Shown here piece by piece: positions 39-10,260 of a stretch of 10,260 bases of DNA (the stretch's first letter is position 1; every line of letters starts with the position of its first letter). The notes under the pieces are model-generated. The model saw nothing but the letters and a program-made list of their open reading frames with translations, was not told the origin of the DNA and made no database searches. The DNA comes from a virus. Where the stretch lies: UHGV virus genome UHGV-0142988. One strand, 5' to 3'. The translations under genes and the position numbers were made by a program.

Positions 39-42
39 CTCA

Positions 43-238
43 TGTCCGCCCCACACGGACACTTCCCCAAATTTGTCCGTCCACCACGGACACTCACAGA
101 CACAGATGTCCTCTGTACGCACACAACGGACAAAATAATAGTGCAATATACACAACTATTACTGGAAATCAATCCAATAATTGTGCACATTGCACTATAA
201 AAATCAGTTATTTTAGAACATTATGCTCTTGTGTCCGT
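43..238. repeat. Terminal-region short repeats TGTCCG(T)/ACGGACA: two hairpin-capable inverted pairs (~43-61, ~74-92) plus solo copies (~126-132, ~232-238)
   Basis: Six copies of the 6-7-mer within ~200 bp directly after the adapter; the first two pairs are inverted repeats with 5-7 nt spacers. Confidence 0.6.
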
Positions 239-269
239 GTGTGAGAGACACATACAGGGGTGATGTTTT

Positions 270-283
270 CGAACATGTGTTCT
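270..283. promoter_or_regulatory. Candidate LexA/DinR SOS box (Cheo-box-like, cGAAC-atgt-GTTCt), with an overlapping GTTC-tat-GAAC
   Basis: GAAC-N4-GTTC with 5' flanking C, ~17 bp upstream of the predicted -35. This is the only such site I found in the window. Confidence 0.5.
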
Positions 284-602: not shown

Positions 603-806
603 ATGAAAAATTATTGTGATATATGTTTTACATGTAATGATGCTGAAGTTTGTCATTCATGTAGCCAGCCAGAGATTTGTTCCGAATTTAAAAAGTGTTT
701 TGATCATAAGCCTTATATAATGTGGGAGAAAATGACAAGTTTTGACGATATCATGAGATGTGTTGAGAAATGGAGGGTGTACAATGAGCAGACCGTTAAA
801 CAGTAA
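603..806 (+). CDS. Small Cys-rich protein (67 aa), possible zinc-ribbon-like
   Basis: AGGAGG RBS ~7 nt upstream of the ATG; CxxCxxC...CxxC spacing in the N-terminal 32 residues (seven Cys). Confidence 0.55.
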   Translation: MKNYCDICFTCNDAEVCHSCSQPEICSEFKKCFDHKPYIMWEKMTSFDDIMRCVEKWRVYNEQTVKQ

Positions 807-1041
807 GAAGTCATGGTATAAGGTATATATCAAAGAATTAAATACACCGAATATCATTAAAAGTCAGTGTAAATATAAATGCGATTATCTATTAGTAAAG
901 GCATACACAGGATCAGTCGCAATGGCAATCGTGCAGGACTACGTTGTCGAGTTTGAAGAAAATTTCCGTCCTGTATACTACAACAAATTGGAGGGAGGTG
1001 TTCCTATTGACAACAAAAAAGTCTTATTTGAAGAAGAGTAA
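784..1041 (+). CDS. Hypothetical protein (86 aa from internal ATG; track ORF begins at 760)
   Basis: GGAGGG RBS ~6 nt upstream of the ATG at 784; overlaps the 3' end of the previous gene; protein-like composition. Confidence 0.45.
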   Translation: MSRPLNSKKSWYKVYIKELNTPNIIKSQCKYKCDYLLVKAYTGSVAMAIVQDYVVEFEENFRPVYYNKLEGGVPIDNKKVLFEEE

Positions 1042-1648
1042 ACCACAAGGTCTTATAAGAACAAAAGACGATTATACGCCGCTTGCTCTCGAGTTAACAT
1101 GGGATATGAAAGACGTTAGAAAAGAGTATTCACGGTTAAGATCAATCTGGCGTAAACGTTATGAAAGATTACTGAAATCTGACTATAAAGATATCAACCT
1201 TGTAACGGATCGACCGATCCAACGTTACAAGCAGTTGAAAGATATAACAAGTGATAGAGAACTCTATCACTTGTTATCTGAACTATCAACTATTATAGGA
1301 TCAGATCGAACTACAGTAACAGGATTGAAAAAACGGGAAAAAGAGCAGATGGAACACATCAACGATGTGTATGGAACAGAGTTAAAAACGCACGAAGATT
1401 TATTAAATTTTGGACGTTTCATGGAACAGTTACGGGATTTTGCATCTGATAGAATATACGATTCTGATTTTGCAGTTGATTTATATTCTGATGGTGAAAA
1501 GCTGAGTACGGGCAAAATGTTAGAGCTATACAAGGAATTTTTGAAAACTGGATCACGTAACATCGAAAAATTGAAATCTGGCATAGCAAAGAAAGAAAAA
1601 GCGAAACGTCAGAAGAGGAAAGCAGGCAAACGTAAACGTAGGAGGTAA
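1007..1648 (+). CDS. Candidate terminal protein (~213 aa if started at TTG 1007; track ORF 944..1648)
   Basis: Directly upstream of, and translationally coupled to, the protein-primed DNA polymerase (its stop lies in the polymerase RBS). Strongly basic C-terminal tail KKEKAKRQKRKAGKRKRRR. GGAGGGAGGTG lies ~6 nt upstream of TTG 1007. Function is from synteny, not homology. Confidence 0.45.
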   Translation: MTTKKSYLKKSKPQGLIRTKDDYTPLALELTWDMKDVRKEYSRLRSIWRKRYERLLKSDYKDINLVTDRPIQRYKQLKDITSDRELYHLLSELSTIIGSDRTTVTGLKKREKEQMEHINDVYGTELKTHEDLLNFGRFMEQLRDFASDRIYDSDFAVDLYSDGEKLSTGKMLELYKEFLKTGSRNIEKLKSGIAKKEKAKRQKRKAGKRKRRR

Positions 1649-1651
1649 CAC

Positions 1652-3733
1652 ATGGAAAATCTGTATACTATTGACACATATAATTATAATAGAATACGGA
1701 ATTTACCATGTTTACATGATACTAGGTCTAACAAAGGAAGTAAAAAAGCAAAAGGTTATAAAAATTGTCTGTGTGCTTTCGATATCGAAACAACTAGATT
1801 GGAAGATATCGAGCAGTCAATAATGTATATCTGGCAGTTTTCAATTCTTTTTCTTGATGATTTACATGTTGATACGATAATTGGAAGAACGTGGACAGAA
1901 TTTGAGTTATTTCTTGATAATCTTATGAATGACGATAACTATGCATATTATATGATTTTTGTTCATAATCTTTCATATGAATTTCAGTTTTTGCGTGGTA
2001 TATATACATTTTCACCGGATGAAGTTTTTGCCATAAAATCACGTAGAATATTGAAATGTGAAATGTTAGAGCGTTTCGAGTTTCGTTGCTCATATTTACA
2101 AACTAATATGTCACTAAATACGTTTACCTCAAAAATGAAAGTAAAACATCAGAAATTATCTGGTGAAAAATTCGATTATAGTAAAAAGCGTTTTCCATGG
2201 ACAGAACTAACCGATTATGAAATAAAGTATAGTACATACGACACGATTGGACTAGTTGAAGCAATGTATAAACGTATGATACTGTCAAATGACAATCTAT
2301 ATACACTACCATTAACGTCAACCGGTTATGTACGTCGTGAAACGAAAAAAGCCATGTATGGTTGGTCACGAAAACACAAGGATATATTTCCCACTATAGA
2401 TGTTTTCGATCTGCTAGAGGAGGCGTTTCGGGGCGGAGATACTCACGCTAACCGTTATTACTCAGGAACCGTGATACGTGCATATGGTAAAAATATTCTA
2501 GGAATCGGTTCATATGATAGGTCATCCTCTTATCCTGACGTTGTGTTGAATTGTGTTTTCCCGATGACACGTTTTGTATATATCGGATCAATAGATGAAT
2601 CTGATATAGATAAGAAACTGGATAGAGGAAAAGCACTCTTATTCCGATGTAAAATAACAGGTATTGAGCAGATCGACAAGTATTACGGATCGCCCTATAT
2701 TTCATATTCAAAATGTAGAAATGTTTCATGTGAAACACTTGACAATGGGCGTATTTTAAGTGCTGACTATATTGAAATAACGCTCACTGATATTGATTAT
2801 GAGATAATGAAACGTGAGTACAAATGGAAACATTTTGAAATAACAGAGTGTTATGAGAGTAAATACGGAGCATTGCCAGAACCGTTGAAAGACATTTTCC
2901 GTAAATATTATACTGACAAAACAGAGTTAAAAGGAATCGTGGAACAGGAACTTTTCTACAACTTGCAAAAGGCTTTGCTTAACGCTGGCTATGGAATGAT
3001 GGTTCAATCACCCGTGAAACAGTCGTTAATATTTACAGAATCGGCAGAAAACATATATACAGTTGATGAAAATGTTTCACGTGAAACATTACTCACTAAA
3101 TATAACAGAACAGCTTTCTTGCCTTATCAATGGGGTGTTTGGGTAACAGCATGGGCACGCCAGCGATTGAAAGAGGGTATAAACATAGTTGGAGATCGTT
3201 ACGTTTACAGCGATACGGATTCAGTAAAATATATAAAAGTAAGAGGTGATAATATTGACGAGTTATTTGATAGATACAATTCTGAGAGAAAAGAGCAAAG
3301 TATCTCCAATTCCGCATACGCAACAGACCGTTATGGCGTTAAACATTATATGGGGGTGTATGAATTCGAGGATACGTATACTGAATTCTCCACCATTGGT
3401 ACAAAAAAATATGTCTATAGAACTAAAGATGGAAAACTACACGCAACAATCGCAGGAGTTAATAAAAAGCTTGCACCGGATGAGTTGGAAGAACATGGAG
3501 GAATTGAAGCTTTCAAAACTGGATTTACCTTTTTACGATCAGGAGGAACTGAAAGCGTGTACAATGACGTTCCTTATGGGGATTACACCGTGGAAAATCA
3601 TGTTTTAAAAATTACACAAAATGTAGTTATCAGACCGTCAACTTACACAATAGGAATAACAGATGAGTACCGTAGGATTTTGGCAGACGCAAGAACATTA
3701 AAAGAATTTAAATATACTTTTGACAAAAATTAA
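1652..3733 (+). CDS. Protein-primed family-B DNA polymerase (693 aa)
   Basis: AGGAGG RBS. Exo I FDIETT, Exo II HNLSYEF, Exo III YSTYDTIGLVEAM, motif A YDRSSSYP (Dx2SLYP-like), motif B KALLNAGYG (Kx3NSxYG-like), motif C YSDTDS, KxY in TIGTKKYVY. Confidence 0.95.
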   Translation: MENLYTIDTYNYNRIRNLPCLHDTRSNKGSKKAKGYKNCLCAFDIETTRLEDIEQSIMYIWQFSILFLDDLHVDTIIGRTWTEFELFLDNLMNDDNYAYYMIFVHNLSYEFQFLRGIYTFSPDEVFAIKSRRILKCEMLERFEFRCSYLQTNMSLNTFTSKMKVKHQKLSGEKFDYSKKRFPWTELTDYEIKYSTYDTIGLVEAMYKRMILSNDNLYTLPLTSTGYVRRETKKAMYGWSRKHKDIFPTIDVFDLLEEAFRGGDTHANRYYSGTVIRAYGKNILGIGSYDRSSSYPDVVLNCVFPMTRFVYIGSIDESDIDKKLDRGKALLFRCKITGIEQIDKYYGSPYISYSKCRNVSCETLDNGRILSADYIEITLTDIDYEIMKREYKWKHFEITECYESKYGALPEPLKDIFRKYYTDKTELKGIVEQELFYNLQKALLNAGYGMMVQSPVKQSLIFTESAENIYTVDENVSRETLLTKYNRTAFLPYQWGVWVTAWARQRLKEGINIVGDRYVYSDTDSVKYIKVRGDNIDELFDRYNSERKEQSISNSAYATDRYGVKHYMGVYEFEDTYTEFSTIGTKKYVYRTKDGKLHATIAGVNKKLAPDELEEHGGIEAFKTGFTFLRSGGTESVYNDVPYGDYTVENHVLKITQNVVIRPSTYTIGITDEYRRILADARTLKEFKYTFDKN

Positions 3734-3781
3734 CATATGTGTTATAATTCATGTAAAGAGATATTACAAGGAGGTGATAAT

Positions 3782-4039: not shown

Positions 4040-4474
4040 ATGGCAAAGAATTATACTATCATTAAATCATCGGGAAACCTTGATACCTATTCAGAATATG
4101 AACTCATCGAGTCACCTGCAATCGTTTCACTTAAAAACGTAGAAAACAAAGGACTTATCTGTGTTGGAGCGTGGGTGAAATATCTTACCACCGACAATAT
4201 CGGAAATGAAATAACCTGCATTTCAGTGCAGGACGCAAACACAGGAGAGGTATTCTCAGGTCAGTCAGCACCTTTCAGAGAAACATTCGAGGCTGTTACC
4301 GATCGTATTTCTGACATGGACGAAGCTCCAGAAATGTTTTTCATCGAGGTTCTTCATAGACAGTCAAAGTCAGGTCGTGATTATCTTATGTGCGCACTTG
4401 TTTCCCCGGATCGTGCTTTTGCCCGCATGGGATATACTGAAAAGAACATTCCTATGCCAGAGCCCCAGAAATAA
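4040..4474 (+). CDS. Hypothetical protein (144 aa); an SSB or DNA-binding role is only a positional guess
   Basis: AAGGAGA RBS before the ATG at 4040; tightly packed with neighbours; no motif recognised. Confidence 0.6.
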   Translation: MAKNYTIIKSSGNLDTYSEYELIESPAIVSLKNVENKGLICVGAWVKYLTTDNIGNEITCISVQDANTGEVFSGQSAPFRETFEAVTDRISDMDEAPEMFFIEVLHRQSKSGRDYLMCALVSPDRAFARMGYTEKNIPMPEPQK

Positions 4475-6230: not shown

Positions 6231-6421
6231 CGTTAGACAACTTAATTACACTCATTTCAGCAGGATTCACGAAAGAAGAGATCCTCACAATGTCAGGTAC
6301 AGTCACCCAGCGTGCCCCACAGCCACAGCCACAGCCACAGCCACAGCCACAGCCACAGCCACAGCCACAGCCACAAAATACAAAGCAGAAATTGCAAAAT
6401 CAAGATCTAAATACAAATTAA
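6227..6421 (+). CDS. Small protein with a (PQ)10 linker-like repeat (64 aa)
   Basis: ATGA overlap with the upstream gene; contains the in-frame hexamer repeat. Confidence 0.5.
   Translation: MTLDNLITLISAGFTKEEILTMSGTVTQRAPQPQPQPQPQPQPQPQPQPQNTKQKLQNQDLNTN
6317..6375. repeat. Tandem hexanucleotide repeat (CCACAG) x ~9.8
   Basis: Perfect tandem copies read directly in the sequence; encodes PQPQ... in the 6227 ORF frame. Confidence 0.95.
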
Positions 6422-6608
6422 GTGATATTTTAATTCGTGTAGAAAAAAATAGCCTTTATTTTTATTTGCGTAAATGATTCCTTTACTTTTAGCACTAAAA
6501 GCAAGAAAACTATAATTTTATAATTTTCTTTGTTTAAGGCCAGTAATGTTTTCGGCGTTTCAATTGTCCTCGACGAAGGCCGCTTCCGCGACCTTATCTA
6601 GCCCGTGC

Positions 6609-6965
6609 TCATTGAGAACGATCAACTACCATGTATGTTGGTTGACACAGGCTGCCGCGTTCCTGTAACCAGTAGTAATCAAGATCCGCAACACGCATAT
6701 CCAACCCCGAATCCACACGATTGATCTGTAACCGCAGCCCTACAGTATCTTTGTACGATAAACCAGATTTAACATTGTACTTGTACTTAACCCCGCTTTC
6801 TTCTTCAAAAGATTTGAGATAAGGGGGGATTTGCTTCTGAATTTCTTTCAAACAAATAACTTCCCCATCAATTACGAACGGCTTTTCAGTTTTACCGTCA
6901 GGAATAGTAGCCGCAATTGTGGTTAATGGAACTATCGACAACAGTACTGATAATGCTCTTTTCAT
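6609..6965 (-). CDS. Secreted small protein with N-terminal signal peptide (118 aa from the MKRALS start)
   Basis: AAGGGGA RBS before the internal ATG; MKRALSVLLSIVPLTTIAA is signal-peptide-like with no lipobox Cys; ~20 nt downstream of the partner gene. Confidence 0.6.
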   Translation of the reverse strand: MKRALSVLLSIVPLTTIAATIPDGKTEKPFVIDGEVICLKEIQKQIPPYLKSFEEESGVKYKYNVKSGLSYKDTVGLRLQINRVDSGLDMRVADLDYYWLQERGSLCQPTYMVVDRSQ

Positions 6966-6987
6966 CTGTTCTTCCCCTTGAATATAA

Positions 6988-7599
6988 TCATTGTTTAGAA
7001 CAAATTTGTGTAATGGTTGCATTATGGTTAAATTCAACATCAATTACTTTTATAGTATTATCATTAAGTACAGATACAAAATAATTACTTGACGAATTTC
7101 CGTACTTCCTTGAACCATCTGCTGCAATCTTGTTGAATTTAGCAGTATACACACTATCTTTATCGCCGGGAATTGGCATTCGACTGATTAATTCATTATC
7201 GGAAATAGTATAATAAATTAAAATTCCTTTATCTGAATAGTAACCTGAATCGCTTTTTGTTCCCTGTCGAGTTTGTATTATTGCATCGAACTTATCGCAT
7301 TTATAAACATTGGTTTTGGCCTTTTCAGTACTGGTAGACGTTGAAGCCTTTACATCAGTACTTTTATCTTGTGAAACAACCCCGGAACCGATACCTACCG
7401 AAACGACAAAGACAATAAAACTCATGCCTAACGACGTAATCAAAGTACGGAACTTTCCCCGACCTTTATTTCTGGAATAGTTTGAAACTTTCCTGAAAGT
7501 AAGTACTGCAAGGATCACACAAATGATGAAAACGACAAGCCCGGCCATAAAATCCCTCAAACGTTGTGTATCAAAGGCAATCATAGTATCACTTCGCAA
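6988..7599 (-). CDS. Two-TM membrane protein with Ser/Thr-rich ~130-aa extracytoplasmic domain (203 aa, or 198 aa from ATG 7584)
   Basis: Hydrophobic segments AGLVVFIICVILAVLTF and LITSLGMSFIVFVVSVGIGSGVV separated by a basic loop; TTG start in the track with an in-frame ATG 5 codons later. Confidence 0.6.
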   Translation of the reverse strand: MRSDTMIAFDTQRLRDFMAGLVVFIICVILAVLTFRKVSNYSRNKGRGKFRTLITSLGMSFIVFVVSVGIGSGVVSQDKSTDVKASTSTSTEKAKTNVYKCDKFDAIIQTRQGTKSDSGYYSDKGILIYYTISDNELISRMPIPGDKDSVYTAKFNKIAADGSRKYGNSSSNYFVSVLNDNTIKVIDVEFNHNATITQICSKQ

Positions 7600-7601
7600 T
7601 A

Positions 7602-7624
7602 CATTGATCGATTAAAGCGATCAA
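7602..7624. promoter_or_regulatory. Palindrome ATTGATCG-attaaag-CGATCAAT in a divergent control region (7600-7700) that also carries three ATCAAT copies
   Basis: 8-bp inverted repeat just upstream of the leftward gene start and upstream of the rightward leader. Confidence 0.35.
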
Positions 7625-7699
7625 TTTTTGATTTTCGATCGGTTAAATCTATCAATATCTATTAATTGAAGACAAATCAATAGGTAAAAACGATCAGAC

Positions 7700-8100
7700 G
7701 TTGGTCAGTACTTCGGAAACACCAGAAGTATGGTTTGGGTCTGCCGTTTAAACGCCCTCAGAAAACCGCTAAGGTCTCTTTATCGCATATGGCTTGGGAT
7801 TTCAGCCTTTGGCTAAAATCGCTTTCAGGGGGGCTTCTTGTGCGTTTTGTCGGGAACACCATCATGGAGGGGGATAAATCGGATCGAAGTCGCTTCGCTC
7901 TGGTCAGTACTGGAAGGGTTAGCTTATCTGGCGAGGGAAGATGAATTGCCAGGCTTCATGAAGATGGTTGGTTTTGTGGACAAGAAGAACTGCCGTTTTG
8001 AGTATTCCCCCTCACACCCAACAAACCTACCCATTAGCAAGGGGGAGTACTTTCTCGTAGTATACAGAACGAATAAATTCTTTGTATACTTCCGTTTTAT
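7700..8100 (+). ncRNA. Candidate structured 5' leader / cis-regulatory RNA (class unassigned)
   Basis: ~400 nt without a convincing ORF, visibly more GC than flanks. 12-bp stem (~8001-8012 / 8040-8051, one G-U pair) with a C/A-rich 27-nt loop, then an AT-rich hairpin (~8059-8090) plus U-tract just before the downstream start. The 11-mer TGGTCAGTACT occurs twice (~7703, ~7901). Confidence 0.35.
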
Positions 8101-8111
8101 CCTAAAGCGAT

Positions 8112-8801
8112 TTGATTATGGACGAGAATAATAAAGAAGTTATTGAAATAAGACCAGAAGATAAGGACTTTTTCGCAGAATTTATTGATTGTGAAGGTCC
8201 AATTATCCAAGATTCAATTGATCATAAAAAAATCACCCTCGCACTTGATAAAGCCCACGACATAAGAAAGTTTGAAATAGATCTCTATTGGAAGCGTGCT
8301 ACATACTTCTTCGCATTCTTCACTGTAATAACAGCTGCATTTGGTTATTTGTTCACCCATGACAACTATACTTTCTTAGCCCCTGCACTTGCGATCATTG
8401 GTTCTGTTTTTGCTTTATGTTTTTGTTATGTGAATATCGGTAGTAAGTATTGGCAAGAAAACTGGGAGTTTATAATTGATAAAATTGAATATTATGTCAC
8501 AGGAAACCTTTATAAACTTTTCTTCTTCGAAAACCATAGAACCAAACGCCCATCAGTCACTAAGATTAATATATTTCTAAGCAAGCTAATTATAGCTACA
8601 TGGTACGCTTGCTTTATACTTTCCATGCACCAGATATGGAATCAAAGCATGGTATTAAATGTCTCTTATATTATCCTTACCATATATAGCACTGGAACGA
8701 CATTATATTACTGCGATAAAACTGTTGCAGACATATCGAACAATGATAAAGAATCACCACGATTCTTTAGATTCAGAAATCCTAATTACATAAAATCATA
8801 A
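8112..8801 (+). CDS. Multi-pass (about 4 TM) membrane protein with ~60-aa soluble N-terminal domain (229 aa; probable ATG at 8118)
   Basis: Four hydrophobic segments (ATYFFAFFTVITAAFGYLF; FLAPALAIIGSVFALCFCYVNI; INIFLSKLIIATWYACFILSMH; MVLNVSYIILTIYSTGTTLYY); weak RBS. Confidence 0.65.
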   Translation: MIMDENNKEVIEIRPEDKDFFAEFIDCEGPIIQDSIDHKKITLALDKAHDIRKFEIDLYWKRATYFFAFFTVITAAFGYLFTHDNYTFLAPALAIIGSVFALCFCYVNIGSKYWQENWEFIIDKIEYYVTGNLYKLFFFENHRTKRPSVTKINIFLSKLIIATWYACFILSMHQIWNQSMVLNVSYIILTIYSTGTTLYYCDKTVADISNNDKESPRFFRFRNPNYIKS

Positions 8802-8805
8802 ACAT

Positions 8806-8824
8806 GGGGGCATTTGATGCCCCT
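8806..8824 (+). terminator. Candidate terminator hairpin GGGGCAT-ttg-ATGCCCC just after the stop codon
   Basis: Perfect 7-bp GC-rich stem with 3-nt loop; the downstream U-tract is weak on plus and better on the minus strand. Confidence 0.45.
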
Positions 8825-9065
8825 TGTAAATTGATAATCCGACCTAAAAACACTTTGAGTACTTCATTTGTCAGTACTGTTATCTGTTTGAGCGAAAGCG
8901 AGTAACGGCTTTGGCGTGCTTTCGAGTACTGCGAGAAAAACGCAAAGTTACGATCTGATATTTGGTTTTTATAGAGACTAACAAGCAAAGCGAAGTTAGG
9001 CTCTTTAGATACTGAATATCAGTAAGGCTAATACATTCAAAATATCAGGTGAAAGGCAATATTAT

Positions 9066-9194
9066 ATTAAGTTACGGTTATTCACCCCACTGCATAAAAC
9101 AAGAATAACCTACTGATTTTACGGACTTTTATTTGAATAATAATTCACTAATAATCATGATAACCGTATTTCTTAGTTTTAAGTTACGGTTATA
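9066..9194. repeat. 15-bp direct repeat TTAAGTTACGGTTAT (~9067-9081 and ~9179-9193) with an inverted partial copy ATAACCGTA (~9161-9169)
   Basis: Read directly; lies in a convergent intergenic region abutting the 3' end of the gene at 9202. Confidence 0.7.
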
Positions 9195-9201
9195 GGTACG
9201 A

Positions 9202-9669
9202 TTAAACAATGGTTCGTAGATATGCAATCAGATCTTTCGCTGAGGCATTACTGTTCAATAATTCCTGTACTGCGTTCTTCTGTTCGTCGGTTAATGGCTT
9301 ACCAGGCAATGCTTTCTTTAGTCCACATAGCGTACCACCTTCTTCTACAAACTTATCCAATGCTTTAGCAACTGCGGTACAGGCTAATTTGTACTTCTCG
9401 ATAGATGATTCACTTGCTGCAAATTTCTTCATCTGATCTGAACGGGTTAAGGTAAGATAATACTTAACCTGTACTTTTGAAAGCTCTGTAGCGTGTTTGA
9501 CGATGTAGAAGACATCTTTAACAGGTAACTTGTACTTTCCCAATGATTTACACTCTTGAATCGTCTGGTTAATTATTAGAGTTGCTTCTGATGTTAGGCC
9601 ACTGTAAGTAACACGTTTTAGTGCTTCTTCTAACTTTTTATTGTTATAAATCCTTTCTTTTTTTGCCAT
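9202..9669 (-). CDS. Hypothetical protein (155 aa)
   Basis: Clean ORF with ATG start; protein-like composition; no motif recognised. Confidence 0.6.
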   Translation of the reverse strand: MAKKERIYNNKKLEEALKRVTYSGLTSEATLIINQTIQECKSLGKYKLPVKDVFYIVKHATELSKVQVKYYLTLTRSDQMKKFAASESSIEKYKLACTAVAKALDKFVEEGGTLCGLKKALPGKPLTDEQKNAVQELLNSNASAKDLIAYLRTIV

Positions 9670-9759
9670 GATAAATACCCCTATGGAAGATGTTAATTAA
9701 TATTGGCCTGATGTATTCCTAATACTCAGGCTTTTTATTTAAGAAGAAAATGGGTGGGG

Positions 9760-10026
9760 TTATACTCCACGTACCTTCTTGAACCATTCACGATACTCTG
9801 GCACTTTATTTTTGCGTAAATTGCTAATGAAATCTTGATCGCAATTAACTTTAAGTAAATTACAAATCCTAGCACTTGTCATATCACTTAGTAGGATATT
9901 CTCGTACTGAGAGAATGTTAGTTGAATGAAATTAACCTTTTCTTTCTTTCGAACTGATTTGTTCAATGACTTCCTATTAGTCCTGATTTTATTTTTTGTT
10001 TTTATTTTACCGTTTTTCTTTGACAT
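9760..10026 (-). CDS. Small basic protein with possible C-terminal helix-turn-helix (88 aa)
   Basis: GGAGTG RBS before the ATG; very basic N-terminus (KKNGKIKTKNKIRTNRK) followed by an HTH-like segment. Confidence 0.55.
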   Translation of the reverse strand: MSKKNGKIKTKNKIRTNRKSLNKSVRKKEKVNFIQLTFSQYENILLSDMTSARICNLLKVNCDQDFISNLRKNKVPEYREWFKKVRGV

Positions 10027-10260
10027 TTTGTCACTCCTCTAAATTAAAATTCATCTCATGGTTAACCTCCTACGGCTGTTGTTTATGTTCGATTGGCTAT
10101 ATGTTAACGGGCAAAATTGCCCCAATCAAGGAATAGTTGCAACTTTTTCTTGACAAGATCATTACTATTCAAGTCAAAAAATCATATATCATTTAGGCAC
10201 TATCTTTGGGTAATGACTCCAACTTATTGATAGTGTTTTATGTTCAGATAATGCCCGATG

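Follow-up and report, generated by a model that had tools for sequence, protein, structure and literature searches.

The 10,260-nt stretch of UHGV virus genome UHGV-0142988 analyzed here (the window) raises the question of where the gene directly upstream of a family B DNA polymerase begins, and which function its product has. Upstream of this gene, an ORF encoding 85 amino acids is located on the plus strand in frame 1 (784..1041), extending from ATG 784 to the stop codon TAA 1039-1041. Coding-like sequence continues from its end in frame 2, in which the first in-frame ATG is found at position 1106. A first-pass annotation had offered two readings of this arrangement, either an independent gene with a TTG start at 1007 behind a strong Shine-Dalgarno sequence or a homopolymer indel or +1 slippage at a run of six adenines, which would fuse both ORFs into one protein of ~287 aa; the product was regarded as a candidate terminal protein. 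The features on which these readings were built, i.e. the upstream ORF, the Shine-Dalgarno sequence, TTG 1007, the A6 run, and ATG 1106, were all found in the sequence where they had been placed. The downstream frame is an independent, ordinary gene with an overlapping, Shine-Dalgarno-driven TTG start and is neither a frameshift fusion nor a sequencing error. The gene structure and the start at TTG 1007 are regarded as highly probable, and the best explanation as a whole, comprising gene structure, start, and a role as terminal protein, is held with good confidence.

The putative terminal-protein CDS covers positions 1007..1648 of the plus strand in frame 2, encodes 213 aa, and ends with TAA 1646-1648. 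Its initiation codon TTG (1007..1009) is preceded by the Shine-Dalgarno sequence GGAGGGAGGTG (990..1000, plus strand), which is separated from the TTG by a spacer of 6 nt (TTCCTA) and has its core GGAGG at 994-998, 8 nt ahead of the TTG. This motif sits inside the upstream ORF, where it codes for E-G-G, and further genes in the operon have Shine-Dalgarno sequences of the same type. For 35 nt (1007..1041, plus strand), the terminal part of the upstream ORF doubles as the beginning of the putative terminal-protein gene; this dual-coding overlap contains the A6 run (1015..1020), which is incidental Lys-Lys / Asn-Lys-Lys coding and no conserved slippery site. According to the ORF list, frame 2 is open in the window from position 899 and has its first TTG at 944. 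The stretch from 899 to TTG 1007 is non-coding, since a stop codon closes the downstream frame within 10 codons upstream of the TTG in 48 of 64 related loci. In most loci, one Leu codon of frame 1 is TTA instead of TTG, a synonymous change by which a TAG arises in frame 2 at a distance of five codons from the start.

For comparison, 65 IMG/VR loci and GenBank entry MT837693 were gathered, and in 64 of them the upstream ORF could be located together with the downstream gene. In all 64 loci, the two ORFs are separate, and the downstream gene is offset by +1 frame and carries its own initiation signals, namely a GGAGG-type Shine-Dalgarno sequence and a TTG or ATG. This includes the only ~58-60% identical relatives L064 and L065, and the spacing of the motif to the start is conserved across related loci. 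The codon homologous to TTG 1007 is TTG in 63 loci and ATG in one (L001, MT837693). MT837693 is the most divergent close relative; its product is 70% identical, also consists of 213 aa, and has the N-terminus MAKQSIIKKRSRPQGL. The upstream ORF has no match in Pfam, PHROG or NCBIfam. Its homologues are traceable only to relatives with a ~58%-identical terminal-protein candidate; they have 84-86 aa and are always separate, and where a homologue is longer, as is the case for a few (up to 143 aa), the additional residues are N-terminal and not C-terminal.

Further evidence comes from the substitutions in 50 unique close sequences, which were analyzed by region and frame. Between 784 and 1003, 80% of the substitutions are synonymous in frame 1, compared to 6% in frame 2, where 96 new stop codons would arise. 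Between 1042 and 1250, the relation is inverted, with 83% synonymous substitutions in frame 2 and 6% in frame 1, the latter with 87 new stops. Overall, 4-10% of the substitutions are synonymous when read in the wrong frame, where many new stops would arise, and this frame-switch signal lies far above chance. Wobble variation with retention of the amino acids starts at codon 1043 and runs through P-Q-G-L-I/L-R-x-K-D-D-Y-T-P-L-A-L-E-L-T-W, so that its onset precedes ATG 1106 by 21 codons. Within the overlap, per-site divergence is 0.037 as opposed to 0.095-0.106 in the flanks, as expected from dual coding. Most changes in the overlap are silent in the upstream ORF but replace an amino acid in the putative terminal protein, so that the first ~11 residues of the latter are weakly constrained. 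TTG 1007 itself is invariant in all 50 unique sequences. It spans the conserved Ile-Asp (ATT GAC) of the upstream ORF, in which a change to ATG would turn Ile into Asn, and this accounts for the start having stayed a TTG. The assignment of TTG 1007 as start codon, in which the first of the two earlier readings is borne out, is thus based on the conserved TTG/ATG, the Shine-Dalgarno sequence, and the frame switch, together with the loss of alternative starts in some of the sequences. Ribosomes start at TTG 1007, directed there by the strong GGAGG Shine-Dalgarno within the 3' end of the 85-aa ORF, and the two genes, overlapping by 35 nt in different frames, are translated into separate proteins. 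Their translation may also be coupled through the overlap.

Three other readings of the locus have to be weighed against this gene structure. It is improbable that the real gene uses another start codon, namely GTG 998, TTG 1028 or ATG 1106. GTG 998 was picked by some gene callers (216 aa), which in variants also chose an upstream ATG (218 aa), but it overlaps the Shine-Dalgarno sequence and is lost in 7 of the 50 unique sequences. TTG 1028 is replaced by TCG in 11 of 50. ATG 1106 is the earliest in-frame ATG, but it reads AAA in 7 of the 50 sequences, and 21 codons ahead of it, including that of near-invariant Y23, are already under purifying selection; moreover, MT837693 has its ATG exactly at the position equivalent to 1007. 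It is highly improbable that programmed +1 frameshifting, or slippage during transcription, at the A6 run produces the ~287-aa fusion, either alone or beside the 213-aa form. A +1 slip of tRNA-Lys on AAA AAA (1015-1020) would formally reach frame 2, and the +1 offset between the two ORFs is common to all 64 loci. However, A6 is present in only 51 of these loci and broken by substitution in 13, with variants such as ACAGAAAAG, ACACAAAAG, and ACAAGAAAG, and it is absent in the divergent relatives L001, L064, and L065, so that no slippery sequence is conserved in the overlap. The overlap itself is variable in length (35 nt in 53 of 64 loci; 23, 32, 38 or 44 nt in the rest), and there is no overlap between the genes in more distant relatives, whereas the independent Shine-Dalgarno sequence and start codon are conserved. 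Six adenines are also short for efficient slippage. No fused homologue was found among the examined matches for the putative terminal protein, the family representatives, and the upstream ORF, and the N-terminal extensions of a few distant family members are low-complexity basic tails in which the upstream-ORF domain was not found.

Equally at odds with the comparative data is a sequencing or assembly indel in the homopolymer at 1015-1020 that would have split one gene into two ORFs, a reading that is barely credible. Homopolymers are error-prone, and the contig is otherwise imperfect. Nevertheless, the same two-ORF structure and frame offset are found in 64 independently assembled loci from many samples, none of which has A5 or A7, and according to the substitution patterns frame 1 is coding up to its own stop while frame 2 is non-coding upstream of 1004. 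Because the 64 independent assemblies agree on the frame structure, an indel artefact is very unlikely. With two separate proteins encoded in all 64 loci at the same frame offset and with a similar overlap, the comparative finding that the first-pass annotation itself had named as refuting a fusion, the proposal of a ~287-aa protein by indel or +1 frameshift has to be abandoned. The accompanying argument, that 287 aa would be nearer to the size of terminal proteins, fails because 213 aa is normal for the protein family, as described below.

The independent gene starting at TTG 1007 belongs to a large family. For its product, 1572 homologues were found, the best 120 of which have 213-218 aa; the longer calls up to 218 aa differ only in starting from the GTG further upstream or from an ATG present in variants. 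At 50% identity, an exhaustive phmmer search yielded 485 representatives, with matches starting from near the N-termini. The median length among 146 wider-family representatives is 208 aa, and only one of them reaches 270 aa. Searches of the protein and 74 family members against Pfam, PHROGs, and NCBIfam gave scattered chance hits only, and the family profile had no hits among PDB sequences at E<=10. Near-invariant positions are Y23, E40, Y41, R43, L44, R45, K50, R51, G106, F135, M139, and S153. The AF2 model is all-helical (pLDDT 88, pTM 0.76), and a BFVD search with it returned only uncharacterized metagenomic podovirus proteins. The N-terminal 22 residues have a net charge of +5 and the last 28 residues of +14, and these basic termini may well serve DNA binding. 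The basic C-terminal tail, which the first-pass annotation had taken as fitting for a DNA-binding protein, is therefore real in the protein studied here, but it is found in only about half of the family.

The gene is embedded in the genome of a small phi29-like podovirus. The left 6.3 kb of the window (39 to ~6375) are collinear with ~14-kb human gut virome contigs at 84-91% identity. The source contig is imperfect in that it carries an adapter at one of its ends and is chimerically joined to E. coli DNA. The gene order starts with small ORFs and the 85-aa ORF, followed by the putative terminal-protein gene. Directly downstream of the latter, a family B DNA polymerase of 693 aa is encoded (1652..3733, plus strand). 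Its Shine-Dalgarno sequence AGGAGG (1640..1645, plus strand) is part of the final codons of the putative terminal-protein gene, and its ATG at 1652 follows 3 nt after the stop codon of that gene. The polymerase aligns end-to-end with phi29 gp2, and this pairwise alignment covers the Exo I/II, Dx2SLYP, Kx3NSxYG, and YxDTDS motifs. By tblastn, it is 33-35% identical to the annotated polymerases of the Amedibacillus phage AD70P3, the Salmonella phage astrithr, and the Acinetobacter phage Phanie. Its identity is based on these two comparisons; a simple HMM/phmmer search gave no match in Pfam or PDB. The polymerase gene is followed by genes for a p6-like dsDNA-binding protein, a 144-aa ORF, and a gp16-type packaging ATPase, and the ORF 4040-4474 occupies the place where relatives have a Phi29_Phage_SSB-type gene. 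Beyond these genes, the full-length relative L070 encodes a Phi29_MCP capsid protein, then a tail lysozyme/amidase, a connector of the gp10 type, and an appendage protein.

The genome ends point to the same type of phage. Perfect inverted terminal repeats (ITRs) of ~245-300 bp are present in six full-length relatives of 13.6-14.3 kb. The left ITR is located at 39..283 of the window (plus strand), where positions 39-276/283 correspond to both ends of the relatives L082 and L083. Many independent contigs begin 1-19 nt from the equivalent of window position 39, which marks a defined terminus, and the window is without roughly the last 8-10 terminal nucleotides of the phage genome. Gene content, ITRs, and common contig ends together identify the phage as a small podovirus of the phi29-like kind that shows the hallmarks of replication by protein priming. 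Phages of this kind have been surveyed (PMC11476376).

Because a protein-primed polymerase and ITRs require a terminal protein, the question arises which gene encodes it. Based on synteny, the ITRs, and elimination, the 213-aa product is regarded with fair confidence as the putative terminal protein, or protein primer, of this phage. Among six distant family members, sampled singly and sharing 24-32% identity, the family gene is directly upstream of the next large gene in all six. This large gene has a DNA_pol_B_2 match in five of the six and is cut by the contig end in the sixth; further downstream, a gene of the Phi29_Phage_SSB type, a gp16 gene, or both are often present. The adjacency to the polymerase is also found in the cultured phages astrithr and Phanie, and in AD70P3. 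Besides the candidate, the proteins of at least 150 aa in the genome are the polymerase, the packaging ATPase, or products of the structural/lysis block, two of which (458 and 212 aa) are without a family match; another unassigned non-structural protein of this size is thus not left over.

It is unlikely, though to be taken seriously, that the 213-aa protein is instead another polymerase-associated factor with an origin-binding, membrane-anchoring or processivity function, with the true terminal protein encoded elsewhere or very small. This would agree with the fact that the protein has no sequence or fold likeness to any characterized terminal protein. With hhalign, the probability was 0.3% for phi29 gp3 and 0.4% for the terminal protein of Cp-1, i.e. 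no similarity, no fold similarity to the terminal-protein chain of 2EX3 was found, and neither sequence nor fold placed the protein in the phi29 gp3 family (PF05435). However, known terminal proteins of different phage groups are also mutually dissimilar and not conserved between these groups (PMC5175343, PMC11476376). Furthermore, a terminal protein is indispensable for a genome with ITR ends and a protein-primed polymerase, and the only other unassigned early ORFs encode 49-85 aa. For the p6-like dsDNA-binding role, the window already encodes a candidate, ORF 4040-4474 occupies the SSB-type position of relatives, and the strict adjacency to the polymerase is kept across 25-97% identity. The label of terminal protein given in the first-pass annotation is thus plausible from synteny, ITRs, and elimination, while a similarity to known terminal proteins does not come with it. 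Lacking likeness to the phi29 and Cp-1 terminal proteins in sequence and fold, the 213-aa protein is to be seen as a functional analogue and not as a member of the phi29 gp3 family.

The nearest relatives of the putative terminal protein are astrithr gp02 and Phanie gp2, and its nearest functional analogues are the terminal proteins of phi29, Cp-1, and tectiviruses. Astrithr gp02 (YP_009857578.1; hhalign 97.2%, E 3e-11) and Phanie gp2 (PHANIE_0020; hhalign 96.7%, E 4e-10) are homologous to it, and the homologue of AD70P3 is linked more weakly (hhalign 49%). With 197-202 aa, the astrithr and Phanie proteins have the same size and the same position upstream of the polymerase as the 213-aa protein, and they share a K-E-x-S-R...K-R-L-x-R-L helix (K-E-[YVI]-S-R) and an S-T-V-x-G loop with it. 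They are nevertheless only ~22-24% identical to it, and neither the D-Y-T-P motif of the N-terminal region nor Y41 nor a basic tail at the C-terminus is present in the Astrithrvirus proteins. They have been deposited as 'hypothetical protein'; a terminal-protein counterpart has been labelled among the replication proteins of Phanie- and Astrid-type genomes, which belong to Gram-negative phi29-like phages, with the gene not specified (PMC11476376).

As in the phage studied here, the phi29 gp3 gene (PF05435; PDB 2EX3) lies directly upstream of the polymerase gene in an early operon, and an overlap is present there as well, with 112 nt shared by gene 3 and the end of gene 4 before it. Both proteins fall into a similar size class, are helical, and have basic regions, which in the protein studied here would bind DNA as well, and both phages have a phi29-type major capsid protein, a connector, a gp16 ATPase, and a p6-like protein. 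In the Streptococcus phage Cp-1, the terminal protein encoded by orf4 has a similar size (230 aa), its gene is located upstream of the polymerase gene with the RBS inside orf3, and the ITR comprises 236 bp compared to ~245-300 bp here. The tectivirus terminal proteins (Bam35 ORF4, PRD1 gene VIII) were also assigned by their polymerase-adjacent position. They show no sequence conservation across groups and are modular, with basic regions and a conserved hydroxyl residue, and the basic termini of the 213-aa protein match the listed hallmarks of phage terminal proteins (PMC5175343).

According to the proposed mechanism, the helical 213-aa product would act as partner of the DNA polymerase, whose gene starts 3 nt downstream, with the basic N-terminus and the +14 C-terminal tail binding DNA. 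The hydroxyl group of a Ser/Thr residue (T103 or S153) would accept the first nucleotide at the inverted-repeat ends, and the primer protein would then stay covalently attached to the 5' ends. T103 is encoded at 1313..1315 (plus strand) and located in the S-T-V-x-G loop between two helices of the AF2 model. Of 92 family members, 89 have Ser or Thr at position 103. S153 (1463..1465, plus strand) belongs to a Y-D-S motif (Y/F-D-S across homologues) in the C-terminal half and is Ser in 89 of 92 members; it is kept in astrithr and AD70P3 but not in Phanie. The tyrosines Y23 and Y41 are conserved in 88 and 91 of 92 family members, respectively, but are absent or replaced by V/I once astrithr, Phanie, and AD70P3 are added. 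Of these four positions, only S/T103 is kept in all three of these phages. Since Y23 and Y41 are not conserved in the Astrithrvirus homologues, priming from Ser/Thr is favored here, in contrast to the Bam35 and PRD1 terminal proteins, which prime from a Tyr (Y194 in Bam35) in their C-terminal part.

T103 is the likeliest candidate for the priming residue and S153 the second, although conservation as such cannot separate a catalytic from a structural role. It counts against a terminal-protein role that T103, the best-conserved hydroxyl, lies in the middle of the protein, whereas known terminal proteins use the C-terminal half. S153, by comparison, lies in a loop of lower confidence in the C-terminal half (residues 151-160, pLDDT 64), possibly a flexible one, which resembles known priming loops. 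The S-T-V-x-G and Y-D-S motifs provide a short list of residues for the priming hypothesis.

The family is without a name in Pfam, PHROGs, and NCBIfam, and it is constantly found ahead of a protein-primed polymerase in small phi29-like phages that abound in human gut metagenomes. It is tempting, albeit doubtful at present, to see in its 485 clusters a second class of tailed-phage terminal proteins that would be structurally unrelated to phi29 gp3 and would prime from the Ser/Thr of the mid-protein S-T-V-x-G motif (T103 here), and not from a residue of the C-terminal domain. Such a class would span gut Bacillota phages and the Gram-negative Astrithrvirus group. Conceptually, nothing new is involved, as terminal proteins are routinely assigned by position and are known to be unconserved between phage groups. 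A family model named 'putative terminal protein' would improve the annotation of thousands of contigs. For the present locus, the gene should be called from TTG 1007 (213 aa), and the two ORFs should be kept apart without a frameshift or pseudogene flag.

The putative terminal-protein gene (1007-1648) is preceded by two short ORFs, a cysteine-rich one of 67 amino acids at 603-806 and one of 85 amino acids at 784-1041. In a few metagenomic contigs these two ORFs are fused in frame into proteins of 142-143 amino acids (P0121 and P0139, homologs of the 85-aa ORF), which look like indel variants or assembly errors and lie upstream of the terminal-protein start region. In phi29, gene 4, encoding the late transcriptional activator, overlaps gene 3, which encodes the terminal protein, by 112 nt at its 5' end (3575-3686 of the phi29 locus L084). 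Thus, the type phage already offers an example of an overlap at the start of the terminal-protein gene, with the preceding gene likewise extending into this start.

The polymerase encoded at 1652-3733 contains every motif of the family-B, protein-primed type and can be aligned with phi29 gp2. When searched alone, it had no match in Pfam (PF03175), NCBIfam, or PDB sequences, in contrast to the polymerases of related loci, which match PF03175. It may therefore stay unannotated in automated pipelines. A sigma-70 promoter with perfect consensus (3720-3748) is located where the polymerase gene ends; it consists of TTGACA, a 17-nt spacer, and TATAAT with an extended -10 TG. For the p6-like gene, ATG 3782, which is preceded by the Shine-Dalgarno sequence AGGAGGTGA, is more likely to be the start than ATG 3737.

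Perfect inverted terminal repeats (ITRs) of ~245-300 bp are present at both ends of the full-length relatives L070, L072, L073, L078, L082, and L083 (13.6-14.3 kb). This is long for a phi29-like phage; the ITR of phi29 comprises 6 bp and that of Cp-1 comprises 236 bp. Copies of a CACGGACAC / GTGTCCGTG motif abound in the ITR (39-283 in the window), and this motif might serve as an origin or as a binding site for a DNA-binding protein. The inner region of the ITR (~205-300, around GGAACATTATGGACTTGTGTCCGTGTGTGAGAAACACATACAGG) seems to be present as tandem repeats of differing copy number in several relatives (L030, L060, L012, L017, and L018), in which 211-295 gives several BLAST hits per locus. 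Compared with the relatives, which start with GCGATTATCTCATGTCC..., the true genome end is located ~8-10 nt outside the first phage nucleotide of the window. Phage sequence directly abuts a Nextera transposase adapter at 1-38 (GTCTCGTGGGCT[T]CGGAGATGTGTATAAGAGACAG). In one of the relatives, L030, a remnant of an Illumina adapter is likewise found at this end.

At the right-hand side, the contig is a chimera of phage and E. coli DNA. Phage homology stops at ~6375, and 6317-10208 matches the E. coli chromosome at 99.9% identity. The junction lies within a (CCACAG)n hexanucleotide repeat (6317-6375) and, since this repeat is common to both sequences, the join is probably a misassembly through it. 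The E. coli-derived part (6317-10208) encodes a membrane protein of the RipA family in addition to hypothetical proteins, and this end of the window is closed by an IS1 terminal repeat at 10204-10260.
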